Shown: positions 4,527 through 18,489 of the stretch, piece by piece
Layout of the letters: each line of letters opens with the position of its first letter
How positions within the stretch are numbered: the first letter of the stretch is position 1
Assembly: GCA_045577755.1 (NCBI GenBank)
Contig: JAZNJA010000059.1
Span: forward strand, 1-61,934
DNA: 61,934 nucleotides
Direction: 5' to 3'
DNA from: Eubacteriales bacterium
GTDB lineage: Bacteria > Bacillota > Clostridia > Oscillospirales > CAG-272
The notes under the pieces: model-generated
What the model saw: the letters and a program-made list of their open reading frames with translations, nothing else
Databases searched by the model: none
Told to the model about the DNA's origin: nothing
Translations under genes and position numbers: made by a program

Positions 4527-5585
4527 CTATTTTTTTCGGGCATTCCTTAATTTTTCCACAACCTCCATATACCGAGGTTCTTCCCGTAGAGGATCGAAGG
4601 AAGGATCGTGGGTGATGAGGGGAATGAGCTCATCTCGGCAGTAGGAATACTCATCCGAGATCCATCCCCCGAAGCCGAGGCCTCGGAAAACAGGGGACGT
4701 GTACTGCTTACCTGTACCGGTTTCAAAATCGAGCGCGTACTCACACATACGCTCAAATGCATCCAGTGCTTGATCGCGATTACCCATCTCGGCGCAGAGT
4801 GCCGCAATGACACTGTACTCATCCGCCAAGACCACCGCCTCATCACAATAATCCTGATCCGGAAACAAAATTTGCAGAATACCGATGATTTGGTTTCGGA
4901 TTTGGATCTTTTCCTCGATCGAATAGCAAGAGGCGTGGGCAATATGCCCCAAACAGATGACGAGACTTCGCAAATACATCTTGGCACATTCTGCAAGATC
5001 CATTCGATGCTCTTCACTATCCTCATGATACCACCGCAAAAGCAATTCTTCCCGGGACGCCCATACGTGGGGCAGATTTTCGGCGAGCTTCTTGACTTCA
5101 CCGTACTCTCCCCGTTTCCCGCACAGAATGATCTTCAATCTGTAGGCGTGATCTCTGGGGTTGCTCTCGGTACAATCCTTCAGGATCTTGTCGCAAAGCT
5201 CCTCGATTTCCGCCTCGCTCCCCTGTACACCGACCAGGTTTTCGGCAAGTCTTGCCATGAGGCGAAAGGAATGCGGATACTGCTTCAAGCCGTTTCGGGC
5301 GATCTCTACCGCCTTTGCGAATTGTCCTGCTCGGTAGAAATCGAAGGATTCATCCGAAATCCGCTCGATTTCCTCCTCGTTCTTGCTAAAATCTACACCC
5401 AGCAAGCGGTCTGTTGTCACTTGTAGGACTCTCGCCAGCAAGGGGAGCTGTGAAATATCCGGTGCGGTTCGGTCACATTCCCATTGGGATACGGCGTTGG
5501 CCGTGATACCGAGGTATTCTGCCAACTGCTCCTGGGTCATATTCCGCTCACGGCGGAGCTTTTTGATGGTGGATCCGATAGACAT
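4527..5585 (-). CDS. XRE HTH regulator with TPR-like helical C-terminus
   Basis: TQEQLAEYLGITANAVSQWECDRTAPD; TPR-like helices; C-term DPSFDPLREEPRY. Confidence 0.85.
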   Translation of the reverse strand: MSIGSTIKKLRRERNMTQEQLAEYLGITANAVSQWECDRTAPDISQLPLLARVLQVTTDRLLGVDFSKNEEEIERISDESFDFYRAGQFAKAVEIARNGLKQYPHSFRLMARLAENLVGVQGSEAEIEELCDKILKDCTESNPRDHAYRLKIILCGKRGEYGEVKKLAENLPHVWASREELLLRWYHEDSEEHRMDLAECAKMYLRSLVICLGHIAHASCYSIEEKIQIRNQIIGILQILFPDQDYCDEAVVLADEYSVIAALCAEMGNRDQALDAFERMCEYALDFETGTGKQYTSPVFRGLGFGGWISDEYSYCRDELIPLITHDPSFDPLREEPRYMEVVEKLRNARKK

Positions 5586-5735
5586 ACGATCTTCCTCCTT
5601 GTCTATTTACTTTACGATGTTATTATAGCAGATCTTCGGTTTGTTTTCAACGGAGCAGATTAACACCTGTGTGAAGCGATGCTGTATTTTTATCACATAA
5701 ACTTTGGTTGAGATACATTGTCTCAAAAGCAATTA

Positions 5736-5771
5736 CCGCCGAGAGCGACCAATTATGGTTACTCTCGGCGG
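5736..5771. terminator. GC-rich hairpin (terminator/REP-like)
   Basis: ccgccgagag...ctctcggcgg inverted repeat. Confidence 0.4.
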
Positions 5772-5814
5772 CTTATGTATATTGCTTTCATACACATGAT
5801 ACCTTTTCTCCATC

Positions 5815-5843
5815 TTTACAAAAACCGATTTTTATGCTATAAT
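5815..5843 (+). promoter_or_regulatory. Sigma-A promoter
   Basis: TTTACA-17bp-TATAAT with extended TG. Confidence 0.7.
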
Positions 5844-5887
5844 AAAAAAGTCAAAATCACCACATATGCAGAAATGGAGAGTACACC

Positions 5888-5983
5888 ATGACCTACCGCC
5901 TTGCCATCTGCGACGACGAGCAGAAGCGTATCGTCGTCGCTAAGCTCGAAGAAATCCTGCCGCTGTGTGAGCGGTTGAAATGA
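5888..5983 (+). pseudogene. Chimeric scar: response-regulator N-terminus fused to type I R-M HsdS C-terminus
   Basis: Translates MTYRLAICDDE|QKRIVVAKLEEILPLCERLK*. The first part is a typical LytTR REC start; the second is a typical HsdS terminal helix. Confidence 0.7.
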
Positions 5984-6019
5984 GGGTAGAAGATGACAGT
6001 TGAAACAGCAAACGCATTA
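5952..6019 (+). repeat. Direct repeat A, copy 1
   Basis: 60/68 identical to 7744-7811. Confidence 0.9.
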
Positions 6020-6610
6020 GGCAGATACTTTGAAACGCTATACACCTTGAATCAAAACCTCATCGTTTTGTGTGGCGCAGACATATGTGATTCTATTGAA
6101 TTTGATCGGCGGGTAGACGAGGTGGTTACGGCTATTCCAAGACTTGTGCCGTACAGAAAGGACAAATCGGTTTATATAATCGAAAAATCCGACGGATTGA
6201 TGAAGTTCTCCCAGGACCTTCCTTTTCTGGGCGGGGATTATGAAAAGATCCTGCAAGAGCACGTAGACTTCTTGGAAAAGGTGAAGAAGATCCGAAACAA
6301 GCTGGAGCATGAAATGCATGGGGCTTTCATTGTCGCATCCAGTAGCGGGAATACGTCCATGTTTTCCGCTACCTATCGAATTGGTGAAGCAGATGTATGC
6401 ATACGCGCATCCGAAATCATGGACTTTGTAAAGGATATGAACACCCTGTTTTCCAAGCTTCAGGGGCTTGTGAAGCAATTCACTTATGACAGTCAGTACA
6501 GCAGTCATCCCTACTTCAAACGGCTGCTCAGATGCGATTTTGCGGACTTCAACCGGATACTGGAGAGTGATCTGTTGTATTATTTTGGGAAGACACTTCA
6601 GGCGTTTTGA
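5993..6610 (+). CDS. Hypothetical protein with HEPN-type Rx4H motif
   Basis: Helical-looking 205 aa protein containing KIRNKLEH. Confidence 0.55.
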   Translation: MTVETANALGRYFETLYTLNQNLIVLCGADICDSIEFDRRVDEVVTAIPRLVPYRKDKSVYIIEKSDGLMKFSQDLPFLGGDYEKILQEHVDFLEKVKKIRNKLEHEMHGAFIVASSSGNTSMFSATYRIGEADVCIRASEIMDFVKDMNTLFSKLQGLVKQFTYDSQYSSHPYFKRLLRCDFADFNRILESDLLYYFGKTLQAF

Positions 6611-6669
6611 GGGATCGGCGGAAATCATTTCTGACACGCGACAATAATACATTTGAAAGGAGAGCTTAT

Positions 6670-7671
6670 ATGGATTTGAACGCAAGAAAAGTTTTTTGGG
6701 AAACGCTATGCTCTTTGCCGGGAAATGACCCGCAAGCTGAACAGGAGCAATTGTTGAAAACCATCAGATATCCCAAGTATCTGTTCCGTTATCGTCCGGT
6801 AACCATAAAGAGTCTTGAAGCTCTTCGCACGAATAAGCTTTACTTTTCATCCGCAAATTACTACGACGATCCGTTTGATACATTTTTGTTTATTGACATT
6901 GAGAGAATCAAAAATGAATATCTCAATCAAGACGAAGACAAAATTGCGTCTGTTCTGGAACGGGTCAAACCGGTGCTCAGCCTTACCATGACACCTGACA
7001 AGGTCGCGGAAGTTACTGTGGAGAAAGTACAAGAAATACTTTCTCCGGAGTGGATGTCGGAATTTTTGTCGTCAACGCTGGCTTTGCGGGATCAGTTAAA
7101 GAAGGATGCATGGTCCGTCTGCTTCTCTGAAAACGGGTTCAACGAGGCGTTGTGGCTCAAATACGCAGATCAACATAAGGGATTTGCGTTGATCTATGAT
7201 CTTGAAAACGTTGATAATCTTTTGTGTGGGCAGTATGACAAATGCGCCAATTGCGGAATCAGGCAATACGGGACACCCCTTTATCCGATCTACTATTCGG
7301 ACAAGCCCTATGATGCTACCAATTTCGCAATGTTGATGGTTTTACGCATGTTGGAAGAAAATGTCAGGCTTCCCCTTGGCCAAGTGCTTCATTTTTCCTT
7401 GGGAACCGGCATTTGGGAGATGGAAAGAACCACCTTGATCAAAAAGAAATGCCATGAGTATGACGAGGAATGGCGGCTGATTATCGGATGTCCTATGAAG
7501 CCTCCAATTATGAGAGAATGGAGACCGAGCGGAATCATTCTTGGTTTGAGGATGGACGTCGCTGAAGAGAATCTTGTTGTCAGTATGGCTCAAGAAGCGG
7601 GGATCAAGAATATCTATAAGTCGTTCATTAATGAGAAGAATGAGTTGGATGCCGATCCAATTATGCTATGA
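6670..7671 (+). CDS. DUF2971-family protein
   Basis: LFRYR, LYFSS...DDPFD, CFSE...LW.KYADQHKGFAL, YDEEWR motifs; ATG 6670 after GAAAGGAG. Confidence 0.8.
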   Translation: MDLNARKVFWETLCSLPGNDPQAEQEQLLKTIRYPKYLFRYRPVTIKSLEALRTNKLYFSSANYYDDPFDTFLFIDIERIKNEYLNQDEDKIASVLERVKPVLSLTMTPDKVAEVTVEKVQEILSPEWMSEFLSSTLALRDQLKKDAWSVCFSENGFNEALWLKYADQHKGFALIYDLENVDNLLCGQYDKCANCGIRQYGTPLYPIYYSDKPYDATNFAMLMVLRMLEENVRLPLGQVLHFSLGTGIWEMERTTLIKKKCHEYDEEWRLIIGCPMKPPIMREWRPSGIILGLRMDVAEENLVVSMAQEAGIKNIYKSFINEKNELDADPIML

Positions 7672-7699
7672 CGCGCTAGCATTGTGTCTCCTAAGAATT

Positions 7700-7728
7700 A
7701 TTCCCGCGTCGACGGGAGAACGCGAAGG
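7700..7728 (+). repeat. Direct repeat B, truncated copy
   Basis: 23/29 identical to 9309-9337; all differences are transitions. Confidence 0.65.
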
Positions 7729-7743
7729 GTTATTCGGTTGAAA

Positions 7744-7811
7744 AAATCCAGACGCTGTGTGGGCGGTTGAAATGAGTACAGAAAATGACAGTTGAAACAG
7801 CAACCGCATTA
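7744..7811 (+). repeat. Direct repeat A, copy 2 (hsdS end + MTVETATAL* remnant)
   Basis: 60/68 identical to 5952-6019. Confidence 0.9.
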
Positions 7812-7825
7812 TAAAGGAGGTTACC

Positions 7826-9223
7826 GTGACAAAAAAGAAAGCAAAAAGCATGGACCATAAAAGAGGCAGAGAAAACACTGTCAAGCTCTTGAAATCGGCA
7901 GGAAACACGTTGCGGGCGGTGATCGGCCTTGTTGCGCTTCTTTCGTTTGTTATCATTCCTTTTTTGCATGGTAAGCTAAACGACGTTGTCGCGCAGTGTA
8001 TATGGTATCCATCGTGCGTACTGTTTTTGGTTTTCGCTATTTCAAACGCGTTATCCAAACCGAGAAAAAACGCCGAATCCCCATTATTCGTATTTTTAGG
8101 GAACATTGGGATTTTTCTGACATTCATACTAATTGGAAGCGCGTTTATTATCAATTACTATGACACTTTCTATAATTGGTGGTGGGCGGTATTCGTTTTT
8201 GTTTCTCTTTCCCTGCCAATAATCCTTTTTGGATTCCGCCGATTTCTGAAAAAGGAAAAGGCGTACACCAAGGAGCAACTCAAAGACTCTTTGAAAACTT
8301 GTTGGAAATACGTTGGGTTCTATTGGCTGATCGATCTTTTCTATATGGCCATCTTTAATTATTGGCTAACATATGGAGACACCCGGGCTGTTTGGCTTGC
8401 TTTGCAGTTCGTTTTCGGTGGATTGGCGATGGTATTTGTTTTCTACAATCTTACAATCGTCTTTCTTTCTACCTCAAAAAAACGTGGCTGGGGATTGTTA
8501 CAAGACTTCATGTGGGGAATTGCAATTACCGTCTATTTGATATTCCTGATTCCCGGTGAGTCTCTGCAAACCATTGTTCTGACAATAACCGCAGCCGTAT
8601 ATGGTGGACTACTGACTCTGGTGGGCGTCGCATGGACGATAAAAGACAATGCAGAAAAACTAAAACAGGAACGAAAATTATCGATCAGACCGTATTTAGA
8701 AATTCATCATAGTTTTTTGACTGAGATGGATGATATACCTTTAGATGACGTTCTGTATATCACGATCGGGAAAACAATTGTCATTCAGAAAAAACTTCCA
8801 GAAGAGATTGAGTCTTTTATCTCCCTGTGCGCAAATACTGAAAAGATTCTGGACACCGTAGCAAAGTTTTCAATGTTGTCTCAATATTTTGCAAGTCATG
8901 CGTTGATCTACACCGAGATTGAAAATTGCGGGGCCGGCAATGCCATTGATACTAAGTTTAGGTACAATGGCAACACAATAGATTCGTTCTGCGTAACTAC
9001 GAGTACCCCGAAAAAAATATTGCTGATATTAAAAGACGAATTGTTCAAGCCGGGCGAGGAGGAGTATATAGAAATCAAACTGTCTCTTGAATATACGGAC
9101 GTGTCTTCGCTTGGTAAATACGAACAGCGAGAGTGTTTCATGTTTGCTAGAAATTCGAGTGGAGATTTGTATATGGCCCAAATGCAAGAAGATTTTTTGA
9201 CGGCGCCGGAAGAGATAACATAA
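7826..9223 (+). CDS. Hypothetical polytopic membrane protein with soluble C-terminal domain
   Basis: GTG start after AAGGAGG; ~8 hydrophobic segments, then RPYL...NCGAGNA beta-rich domain. Confidence 0.75.
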   Translation: MTKKKAKSMDHKRGRENTVKLLKSAGNTLRAVIGLVALLSFVIIPFLHGKLNDVVAQCIWYPSCVLFLVFAISNALSKPRKNAESPLFVFLGNIGIFLTFILIGSAFIINYYDTFYNWWWAVFVFVSLSLPIILFGFRRFLKKEKAYTKEQLKDSLKTCWKYVGFYWLIDLFYMAIFNYWLTYGDTRAVWLALQFVFGGLAMVFVFYNLTIVFLSTSKKRGWGLLQDFMWGIAITVYLIFLIPGESLQTIVLTITAAVYGGLLTLVGVAWTIKDNAEKLKQERKLSIRPYLEIHHSFLTEMDDIPLDDVLYITIGKTIVIQKKLPEEIESFISLCANTEKILDTVAKFSMLSQYFASHALIYTEIENCGAGNAIDTKFRYNGNTIDSFCVTTSTPKKILLILKDELFKPGEEEYIEIKLSLEYTDVSSLGKYEQRECFMFARNSSGDLYMAQMQEDFLTAPEEIT

Positions 9224-9308
9224 TGGCTATTCGCTGAAAAATAGGAAAAACGAAACGAGGTCTGTCTTGAATACACTGTTTATACAGACATTTTAAGCGA
9301 TTTCAATC

Positions 9309-9476
9309 ATCCCCGCGCCGACGAAAAAATGCGAAGGATCGCCAAGCGGTTCAGCGGCGACCTCGCATCCGTCGGCGCTTGATTTTTGCGGGTTGCGACG
9401 GTCAAGTTGAGGCAGGCGTGTGCTTGTCTCGGGCGAGCGCAGCGAGCCCGACTTGTATCAAGACAAGCACACGCCT
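9309..9476. other. Structured intergenic block, candidate oriT / single-strand origin
   Basis: Long hairpin 9315-9378; perfect 16-bp IR 9414-9429/9461-9476 enclosing a tcgggc/gcccga hairpin with GAGCGCAGCGA loop. Confidence 0.5.
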
Positions 9477-9619
9477 AACAACCACGTTTGATTCCGACTC
9501 ATCCGCAATTGCATCATTTTCGCACCGGCTCACACGGTATTGTCTTTTCGTAGAGAACCAAAAACAGTTTAAGAACGGGCCTTTTGAGATATAAAATACC
9601 ATTTAGGAGATAGCGTATC

Positions 9620-10609
9620 ATGAATAACGCTGAAAAGTACAATCGCATCCGCCCGTTAAAGATCTGGGAGATCCTACAGCGCGAGACAGACGGAGATCAC
9701 CCCATGGGAACAGAGGAGCTTCGAGCCAAGCTTGCCGAGTGTGGGATCCAGGCGCATAGAACCACTATTTACGAGGACATTAAACTTCTGAACGAGTGGG
9801 GCTATGAGGTCATGGTTCATAGGGGTCGAAGCAATCAGTATTACGTGGAGGATCGACAGTTTTCCAGCCCCGAGATCCATATACTCATGGATGCGGTTCA
9901 AGCCGCCAGCTTTATCACTCACAAAAAGACCGATGAACTGGTAGATAAGATTGCTGATCTGGCCGGTAGCCAAAAGGGGCTGGTTCTGAAAAAGAACATC
10001 GTACAGTTCAACACTGCGAAAAGCACGAATGAGAATATCTACTATTCGGTGAACGAGATCGTAACGGCTATCAACAACCGACAGAAGATTATCTTCCTGT
10101 ATTTCGACTACAACGAAAAGCATGAGCGTGTGTACCGTCGAAACGGTCATCACTACGTAGTCAGTCCTGTTGCCACGGTCTTTGCAGACGGTCATTATTA
10201 TCTGGTGATATACGACAAGCGGTATAATAAGATCAGCCATTACCGTATTGACCGCATGGACAAGGTGGAGATCATTGACGAGCAAGCTGATATGCCCCCT
10301 GAGGAATTGGGCTTCGATATAGCAACACATAAGAAACAGCTATTTGGAATGTTCTCCGGAGAAGCCAAAACCGTTCATTTGGAAATGAGCCGATACTTGA
10401 TGGATGCGGTGTTTGACCTGTTTGGTGAGCAAACCGAAATCTCCCTGCATGGCGAGGATAAGATGAGTTTTTCAGCAGAGGTGCAGGTCAGCGACTTATT
10501 CTTCGGATGGTGCAGCTCCTTCGGACAGAATCTTACGATTCTTGGCCCCGAGGATATCAAGGAACGGTACACGGCGTACTTGGATAGCCTAAAGGGTCAG
10601 TATCAATAA
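9620..10609 (+). CDS. WYL-domain transcriptional regulator (wHTH-WYL-WCX)
   Basis: N-term wHTH (RTTIYEDIKLL), VSP...DGHYYLV...HYRIDRM, FGMFSGE, FFGW..SFG. Confidence 0.92.
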   Translation: MNNAEKYNRIRPLKIWEILQRETDGDHPMGTEELRAKLAECGIQAHRTTIYEDIKLLNEWGYEVMVHRGRSNQYYVEDRQFSSPEIHILMDAVQAASFITHKKTDELVDKIADLAGSQKGLVLKKNIVQFNTAKSTNENIYYSVNEIVTAINNRQKIIFLYFDYNEKHERVYRRNGHHYVVSPVATVFADGHYYLVIYDKRYNKISHYRIDRMDKVEIIDEQADMPPEELGFDIATHKKQLFGMFSGEAKTVHLEMSRYLMDAVFDLFGEQTEISLHGEDKMSFSAEVQVSDLFFGWCSSFGQNLTILGPEDIKERYTAYLDSLKGQYQ

Positions 10610-16670: not shown

Positions 16671-16970
16671 TCAATCCACGAATTTGTACCAGACGTAGTA
16701 GTTGAACTCAAGTTCACGGGTCTCGTAACTGTCTTTACCCGTGTCCAGCTGGACTTCGCGGATCTCGTAGTAGGTACCTCTGAATTCACCGGGCTTGTTC
16801 GGGATAGGATTGCACTTTTGGACGCAACCGTCGAACACGCGGATGTAGGGCTTACCTGCTTGACTGACACAAGCGATGACGAGATCGGTATCCGTGACAT
16901 AACCGAGACCTGTTATCTTCTCGGTCGTATCTTTTCGATACCTTGTGATGGAGTAGACTACTTTTTTCAT
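16671..16970 (-). CDS. Hypothetical protein, first gene of the leading operon
   Basis: AGGAGG RBS; 99 aa, beta-rich. Confidence 0.75.
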   Translation of the reverse strand: MKKVVYSITRYRKDTTEKITGLGYVTDTDLVIACVSQAGKPYIRVFDGCVQKCNPIPNKPGEFRGTYYEIREVQLDTGKDSYETRELEFNYYVWYKFVD

Positions 16971-16981
16971 TTTGGATTACC

Positions 16982-17251
16982 TCCTGATTTTTTATTTTGC
17001 CTTTCGGCAGAACCAGGGGAGCACCGTTCGGGTGAAGTCGTGTCCATCACGAATGCTGAATGAATCTGTCAACGCGAGGTACAGTCCCTTGCGAATACAA
17101 GAAAAAATATTGCATATGGATACAGAAAAGGCCAAGTATTGCTACCTGGCCTTTTTGCTATGATTTCATTTTTCAGCGATATTTTTTCACGTTGACTGAT
17201 TCGAGAACTGTGCTAAACTGGTGACGACGAAAGGCGAAAAAATCGGGATTG
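16982..17251. promoter_or_regulatory. Candidate Frpo-type single-stranded-DNA promoter
   Basis: Imperfect long IR (16982-17065 vs 17160-17248). TTGACT 17192-97 and TG-C-TAAACT 17214-19 lie on the 3' arm, with the -10 unpaired. Confidence 0.7.
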
Positions 17252-17392
17252 ATATTTTTTATATTTGTGTTTACTTATCAAACAAGATATGGTATAATAT
17301 TGCCGTTGAAAAAGCATTGTTTGAGTTTTACTTGACGCATAAAAGATGATCAAGATGATATCTCAATTGTTAAATAATGAGGAGGAGAACAT

Positions 17393-18414: not shown

Positions 18415-18489
18415 TGGCTGGGATGGCCGGATTCGAACCGACGGATGCCAGAGTCAAAGTCTGGTGCCTTACCGCTTGGCGACATCCCA
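18415..18489 (-). tRNA. tRNA-Gln (TTG)
   Basis: TGGGATG...CCAGA-CT-TTG-AC-TCTGG...GGTTCGAATCC...CATCCCA-G-CCA; upstream TTGACA-17-TACAAT. Confidence 0.97.

Follow-up and report, generated by a model that had tools for sequence, protein, structure and literature searches.

The 61,934-nucleotide (nt) stretch analysed here, hereafter the window, is contig C59 of a 3.45-Mb genome (G000; 253 contigs, 93.5% complete), and its positions 5,815 to 9,476 hold two neighbouring blocks of accessory genes. In the reading favoured here, to which a probability of roughly 0.58 is given, two dead 3′ ends of the type I restriction-modification (R-M) gene hsdS each head one block, each block ends at the left edge of an origin-like hairpin, and the front block was added by an ordinary crossover within the hsdS tail. 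The locus is probably a frozen two-block stack and, as it stands, a decayed example of a known stacking style; the layout of tail-headed accessory blocks recurs in gut Clostridia. The original prediction, made from this DNA alone, had proposed a small integron-like array of two cassettes between shared flanks (A and B, with second copies A′ and B′), but stacking by ordinary recombination at hsdS ends is likelier than any integron-like machine. The features concerned, all on the forward strand, are listed below (aa, amino acids; ORF, open reading frame).

5815–5843 (+): sigma-70-type promoter site TTTACA-17-TATAAT, native to a LytTR response-regulator operon; 11/12 consensus with TG
5888–5983 (+): 31-codon leader ORF, the first 12 LytTR codons fused to an hsdS tail at GAGCAGA (5918–5924)
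5918–6019 (+): repeat A, an orphan hsdS 3′ end (EQKRIV..KLEEILPLCERLK*), a 9-nt spacer and the first 9 codons of the HEPN-motif gene; 76.5 bits
5993–6610 (+): 205-aa protein, likely a HEPN-type RNase, in which the motif R-N-K-L-E-H is conserved; 90 homologues
6670–7671 (+): 333-aa DUF2971 protein, a candidate anti-phage gene; PF11185 E = 5.9e-5, PADLOC PDC-S31 E = 9e-26
7700–7728 (+): B′, a truncated remnant of the origin-like hairpin's left arm, without loop, right arm or second hairpin, joined to A′ at GAAG
7729–7814 (+): repeat A′, a more eroded orphan hsdS tail and a 9-codon stub (7785–7814) of a second HEPN-motif gene; 41.6 bits
7826–9223 (+): 465-aa protein of an unnamed family, with 7 hydrophobic segments in residues 29–268; 262 homologues
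9305–9378 (+): B and hairpin 1 (stem 9315–9378) of the origin-like double hairpin, the edge where cargo joins; DNA fold z −2.6 and −3.3
9414–9476 (+): hairpin 2 of the origin-like region; z −5.8, conserved in sister elements

The repeats A (5952–6019) and A′ (7744–7811) are identical at 60 of 68 positions, as first reported, and their match extends to 72 nt (5948–6019 against 7740–7811; 88%, E = 2.5e-19); the only further match to A in the genome is a single 15-nt chance match. Translated, A reads EQKRIV..KLEEILPLCERLK*, the sequence with which type I hsdS genes terminate, and the tail scores given above were taken against a profile of eight intact hsdS ends (hsdS genes being labelled by Pfam PF01420). 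Since the sole Methylase_S match in G000 sits on another contig, C249, both window tails are orphans. Several details of the original prediction hold at this point: A′ retains the first codons of the HEPN gene (MTVETATAL*, 7785–7814, against MTVETANALGRY), a new ribosome site, AAAGGAGG, precedes the GTG at 7826, and CGGTTGAAA occurs both at the B′/A′ junction and inside A (5972–5980, 7735–7743 and 7764–7772). As a core site CGGTTGAAA was rejected, as it matches hsdS codons at both places, and its junction copy likely encodes nothing other than V-E-K of the hsdS tail.

The flanks on the other side have a different origin, A/A′ and B being derived from two unrelated sources. B is the left arm of the double hairpin, and B′ (7700–7728), which shares 23 of 29 positions with B (9309–9337) as had been noted, ends inside this arm and meets A′ at GAAG. 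Against a profile of nine Rep-adjacent origin copies B′ scores 28.1 bits; among the 6.88 million genome positions scored, only three full origins (on contigs C36 and C29, and the window's B) rank above it and the best unrelated site reaches 24.4 bits, so the resemblance is more than chance. The double hairpin is a putative rolling-circle origin, judged by its hairpins and by its position behind a PF23343 Rep gene; no Rfam match was found within 5500–9800, and no match to the origin pattern in the viral-contig scan. Its loop motif is present at 21 loci, 12 of them directly behind a Rep gene, which for the C36 copy is of PF23343, and nine not, with three loci lacking the exact motif (L035, L036 and L041) left unclassed. 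The nine copies away from Rep have five different left neighbours: the membrane gene of the window, a cluster of lipoprotein-like paralogues (four genomes), a CRISPR array, a divergent 360-aa gene (two genomes, both with a Rep retained some 1.7 kb farther to the left) and one further gene. For four of these five types, likeness to the Rep-adjacent profile ends 35–44 nt left of the GCGAAGG end of the arm, or about 10–20 nt outside the stem, and in the fifth it reaches 73 nt. With five left neighbours and a likeness that stops near the stem, the left edge of the origin is a recurring joint. The lipoprotein-like paralogues (about 470–500 aa, labelled by eye) stand at this edge at L137, L138, L139 and L080 (G025, G017, G004 and G026), and the genes to the right of the origin differ among these four genomes.

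At the head of the stack, the promoter site at 5815–5843 does match the consensus at 11 of 12 positions, with TG, as described at the outset. Intact LytTR genes of relatives have a matching promoter, ribosome site and first 12 codons, and the promoter sequence also lies ahead of intact, Pfam-labelled LytTR genes in G017, G405, G072, G318 and G362. The joint between LytTR and tail A is a 7-nt microhomology, GAGCAGA, common to both parents, and the leader ORF ends in a stop that lies over the probable ribosome site used by the HEPN-motif gene. The promoter is borrowed from a LytTR gene and was probably joined to the tail by deletion. In the RNA runs, only 6–16% of words were present.

Evidence from other genomes supports stacking at A, as orphan hsdS tails there head varied and shuffled blocks. 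The tail pattern was found in 15 of 401 genomes of the order, G000 included. Two of the 14 matches outside G000 are not tails; among the remaining 12, four carry two tails within 2 kb (G662, G576, G512 and G633), and L010 holds an intact hsdS and two orphan tails. A family search matched 13 of the 401 genomes and added no two-tail locus. Pattern matches in G189, G108, G382, G279, G036, G159 and G141 were discarded as not being hsdS tails, with just 23–32 bits over 23–32 nt. Cargo genes change their position between loci: in G684 an intact hsdS stands before an 89-aa gene whose 97%-identical counterpart in G361 follows an orphan tail, and this gene again follows the intact gene at L129 and L130 and an orphan tail in G316. 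A 247-aa gene (93% identical) has a tail before it in G576 and DUF2971 before it in G361. A block of the 89-aa gene, a 168-aa gene and DUF2971 follows an intact M-S fusion at L130. What comes after one and the same upstream gene plus tail is a HEPN gene at L006, where only the C-terminal end of that upstream gene is seen, and in G662 and G594 a 667-aa gene. Fused hsdM-hsdS genes were observed at L057, L129, L130 and L053, the first three ending in the same tail.

The cargo families point to the same setting. A HEPN alignment search gave 14 loci, of which three weak partial matches (L018–L020) were not used. HEPN-family genes directly follow a tail at L006, L009 and L011 and lie within a tail array at L010; at L007, L008 and L012–L017 no tail stands in front. 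The four closest genomic DUF2971 loci (G361, G316, G594 and G469; 54–66% identical) all contain a tail, two of the four having been found by the tail search itself. That the cargo belongs to a gene pool situated behind restriction loci is supported. In all four orphan-orphan pairs the downstream tail is the more eroded (chance 1/16), which fits head-first addition of blocks.

The left ends of the tails raise an alternative. Of 18 orphan or possibly orphan tails (L111 and L052 were left out as repeats of L108 and L051), 13 keep 20–67 nt, none keeps 68–82 and five keep 83 or more, one of these five being L117, possibly an intact gene, 553 nt away from the end of its contig. Five of the 13 short tails begin 61–67 nt before the end, at the E-Q codons (binomial 0.01, in a window picked after seeing the data). 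This pile-up could reflect an enzyme crossover site with later erosion, or a reused word prone to microhomology. In the former case, the E-Q-K-R codons of hsdS would be the docking site of a trans-acting site-specific recombinase, each cassette would carry its own replacement gene end and the orphan tails would be attachment-site scars of serial integration, much like islands that accrete in tandem at the 3′ ends of genes. Both window junctions do lie within a few nt of these codons, the head-first polarity holds in four of four pairs, G000 has eight serine- and five tyrosine-recombinase matches, and recombinase-driven circles at hsdS repeats are described for the pneumococcal tvr locus (PMC6265443). 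However, the left ends spread from 20 to 99 nt or more, with five of 18 tails keeping PLPPL or more, no single recombinase gene accompanies the tail stacks in the locus maps (read by eye, with no profile search), A and A′ fold weakly as DNA (z −0.5 to −2.1), and the 7-nt LytTR microhomology accounts for the junction at A. Such docking is unlikely, although it deserves to be kept in mind. A fuller version, a two-step and integrase-poor stacking route of gut Clostridia in which a trans-acting recombinase or Rep cuts both at the E-Q-K-R codons and at the left edge of the origin, and tail-to-origin circles dock head-first at any hsdS tail, is decidedly doubtful; if true, defence genes would shuttle between restriction loci and Rep-less rolling-circle elements, and the window locus would be one docked circle.

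The integron comparison fares worse. attC sites carry RYYYAAC...GTTRRRY ends and a bottom-strand hairpin, and an integron is defined by the IntI tyrosine recombinase. Co-oriented blocks behind one strong promoter site and the head-first polarity would suit a genuine integron array, in which attC-like sites and a cassette promoter would be expected. Such an array is nevertheless very improbable: no RYYYAAC...GTTRRRY pair occurs on either strand of 5800–9500, no match over the cut-off was found in G000 to NF011946, which we take to be the integron-integrase model, and in place of a dedicated cassette promoter at attI there is that of the LytTR gene. The integron-like label is therefore dropped.

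The arrangement itself is real. A contig from run X2, which belongs to another study, spans 5084–9380 in the same order, with 127 differences in 4297 nt and two gaps (97%); as this independent contig covers both units, the gene order has been kept through about 3% divergence. The fragmentation of the genome into 253 contigs and the breaking of elements at shared repeats might suggest an assembly artefact that fused two strain variants, but a single contig spanning both units with 3% differences leaves this explanation with hardly any credence. The expected variants did not appear: in contigs of four runs, a form of data that drops rare forms, there were no one- or three-cassette alleles, no excised circles, no joints by which A would skip to A′ or B′ to B, and no back-joints. 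Nor was an empty allele found in the four runs or in the 401 genomes of the order, a thin sampling. A 312-nt contig (run X3, record 20) matches 7741–8017, that is A′ and the start of the membrane gene, and its first 35 letters do not fit B′; it is possibly block 2 in another setting.

The proposed role of A and B as joint cassette brackets is not supported: among 127 loci (1–20 kb each, fetched for different reasons) tail and origin occur together only at the window's own locus. The proposal of a variable slot between hsdS end and hairpin was borne out in part: tails head shuffled blocks and the origin edge has five neighbours, but the closest relative has the same genes. As to the idea that homologues always carry the same genes, which would reduce the locus to a one-off duplication, the closest relative keeps the order, and hsdS tails elsewhere head different genes. 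The element's truly variable slot is the larger interval from serine recombinase to origin. In the sister element on contig G003:C62 (L136, 38000–56000), where no Rep is present, the serine recombinase is 96% identical to that adjoining the window (on contig C153), the origin 94% and the WYL gene 85%, and cas3, cas1 and an array of repeats occupy the recombinase-to-origin slot, which in the window's island contains about 14 kb of cargo.

A single tandem duplication, in this lineage, of the tail-HEPN-...-origin edge is a further alternative, in which a deletion later cut the first origin to B′ and the membrane gene replaced the inside of the second copy. It would explain why A′ keeps the first nine HEPN codons and why both units run from A to B, and it agrees with an A-plus-B bracket that is found at no other locus and with the same layout in the closest relative. 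Yet the interior shows no further duplication, the divergence between A and A′ is 12% where that between the X2 allele and the window is 3%, in G390 a homologue of the membrane gene belongs to the cargo that follows a type I restriction locus, tails elsewhere stack without duplicated cargo, and the X3 contig hints at block 2 in another setting. Duplication is accordingly held to be rather improbable.

Under the favoured reading of head-first stacking by ordinary recombination, a serine-recombinase element that has lost its Rep would have taken tail-plus-HEPN blocks from restriction loci into its cargo slot, with joints at the origin edge. Two sister versions, tail-HEPN-DUF2971-origin and tail-stub-membrane gene-origin, would then have arisen. 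A segment of the first that began at the tail, reached as far as the origin's left arm and was closed at the GAAG microhomology would have entered the second at its tail; had the second block come in at the origin arm instead, the same sequence would result. The new front block would have pushed the older one back behind an orphan tail. A deletion at GAGCAGA, earlier or later, would have put the LytTR promoter and start codon before tail A, keeping the block transcribed and, through the short leader ORF, translated. The stack would now be mostly frozen and would move, if at all, with the whole island. The parts of this scheme and their sources are observed directly, as are the shuffled tail-led blocks elsewhere, the absence of a Rep from the island and the same order in an independent contig, and microhomologies are visible at the window junctions. 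Several points nevertheless weigh against the scheme. No circle, empty allele or intermediate was seen in the contigs of the four runs, the stretch common to A and A′ (about 70 nt, 88%) is short for a RecA-type crossover, and the non-random left ends of the tails (five of 13 at 61–67 nt and none at 68–82) are unpredicted by plain recombination. Furthermore, the order of events is unreadable from one locus, and duplication followed by replacement yields nearly the same layout.

Among published systems, the window stack appears most like the 'C-terminal displacement' arrays of rhs genes (Jackson et al. 2009, PMC2935791). There, too, a conserved stretch of a gene is repeated directly in copies that vary in length and have different DNA after them, and one unit can sit on the intact gene in one genome and be displaced in another, as with the 89-aa gene. 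In rhs arrays new units displace old ones downstream and the orphans decay, with homologous recombination through circular intermediates having been proposed. Unlike rhs, the repeat here is the very end of hsdS and is followed by separate genes rather than a protein tip, the island has no intact hsdS, the array head is a LytTR fusion and each block stops at the edge of an origin. At R-M loci, insertion with long target duplication (Furuta et al. 2010, PMC2853133) similarly gives direct repeats of more than 30 bp, some over the 3′ end of a gene, with no mobility gene; however, in that case the R-M genes are the insert and the empty allele is known, whereas here an R-M gene end is the repeat, its copies are 88% alike and the runs and genomes searched gave no empty allele. 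Tandem accretion of integrative and mobilizable elements (IMEs) and cis-mobilizable elements (CIMEs) at gene 3′ ends (PMC5704250) shares serial stacking, scars containing the target gene end and decayed members without mobility genes, and IMEs with rolling-circle-initiator relaxases (PMC5704250) resemble the host element family. Such accretion needs a cognate integrase and fixed attachment ends; the left ends of the hsdS tails cluster but vary from 20 to 99 nt or more, with no cognate integrase found. The tvr locus (PMC6265443) also has direct repeats at an hsdS locus that allow circles to be excised and to re-enter, although it shuffles target-recognition domains with its own tyrosine recombinase, while separate genes are involved here and no such domains or linked recombinase are left.

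The cargo is of the same kind as the genes embedded in type I R-M systems described by Payne et al. (bioRxiv 10.1101/2024.01.29.577857), the DUF2971 protein matching the PADLOC candidate PDC-S31. Unlike those genes, the cargo here has left its R-M system, and a search of the Payne text gave no use of 'hsdS' or 'recombination', hence no sign of a route based on tails. In PMC12829572, hsdS-linked defence genes are swapped by recombination, and the sections used mention no orphan tails. No description of hsdS-tail stacking was found among the open-access papers listed by the literature searches, supplements excluded. As a recurring exchange point, the hsdS tail offers a search handle for defence candidates such as the HEPN-motif and membrane-protein families. 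The locus shows blocks that have left their restriction system, acquired a foreign promoter and come to travel within a Rep-less element, in the cargo slot that in its sister holds CRISPR-Cas, and if the clustered junctions prove to be enzyme-made, they would mark an undescribed cassette route.

Defence roles are likely for two of the three cargo proteins, which are candidates on the evidence of their sequences. The earlier labels fared differently: DUF2971 was confirmed (PF11185, E = 5.9e-5), whereas HEPN rests on a conserved R-x4-H motif, the fold match being tied with helical bundles. In the 205-aa protein, which has no Pfam or PADLOC match, R101 is nearly invariant and H106 invariant across 70 aligned homologues, in agreement with the HEPN R-x4-6-H motif as given by Payne et al. 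(bioRxiv 10.1101/2024.01.29.577857). Its structural model (predicted local distance difference test score 92) aligns with the HEPN toxin 7ae2_A over 119 residues (Z 7.0, root-mean-square deviation 4.2), level with designed helical bundles; no fold match reached a Z of 8 and no Foldseek match an E of 0.001. The protein is likely, as predicted from this motif, a HEPN-type RNase. For the DUF2971 gene, Aristaios provides a tested anti-phage example (PMC11381338).

The 465-aa membrane protein has no Pfam or PADLOC match either, and its atlas clusters are all 'hypothetical'. Its homologue in G390 is the last cargo gene behind the type I restriction locus, and the genome search found the family in one other genome of 296, with no tail near it. 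Many homologues match about 60% of its length and the G390 copy covers only residues 1–282, and these partial matches suggest a conserved membrane half with exchangeable C-terminal halves.

Other searches returned little. The HEPN family had no match in the viral-contig scan, in which the HEPN start gave one chance match, and a first scan of the genome collection with the single 205-aa protein found none. The metagenome pattern scan gave one locus and the plasmid scan one irrelevant 34-nt match. At L008 (9642–10265), a HEPN-family homologue without a tail is split into two ORFs behind an apparent tRNA cluster.

The blocks lie in an island that occupies the left part of the window, where bases 1 to about 18,000 have a G+C content of 36–53% per kb, against 60% beyond 19,000, and whose right end is a tRNA-Gln gene (18415–18489). 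The first 141 bases of C59 overlap contig C153 exactly, and the island continues for about 8 kb on C153, where a large serine recombinase is encoded (C153:5133–6689, PF07508 match). The remark that no recombinase is in view is therefore correct within the window and wrong for the island as a whole. None of the five tyrosine-recombinase (Phage_integrase) matches in G000 is on C59 or C153, and no clear direct repeat bounds the island between the C153 side and the tRNA-Gln side. A gene search of both contigs found no Rep gene; Rep genes of G2P type are on five other contigs of G000 (C36, C29, C232, C75 and C133). To the right of the tandem blocks on C59 are WYL, PcfJ, PcfK and ArdA genes, the first of these being as follows.

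9620–10609 (+): WYL-domain gene, the usual neighbour to the right of the element's origin, also there in C36, G007:C25 and G003:C62

Related elements adjoin tRNA-Pro, tRNA-Glu, tRNA-Gln and tmRNA genes. A 702-aa gene precedes Rep in C36 and C29, and its counterpart in G275 has no Pfam match. A promoter-region module of the element family occurs at 1882–2131 and 16964–17276 of the window and on at least seven other contigs; its presence twice within the island as well as elsewhere indicates that the island is itself composite. A second promoter site matching 11 of 12 consensus positions, at 5650–5622 (−), points left into an HTH-TPR gene at 4527–5585. Finally, a short inverted repeat at 5735–5771 recurs on C246 and C153, and in gut metagenome contigs the sequences flanking it are many and unrelated; it is perhaps a widespread terminator or small repeat.

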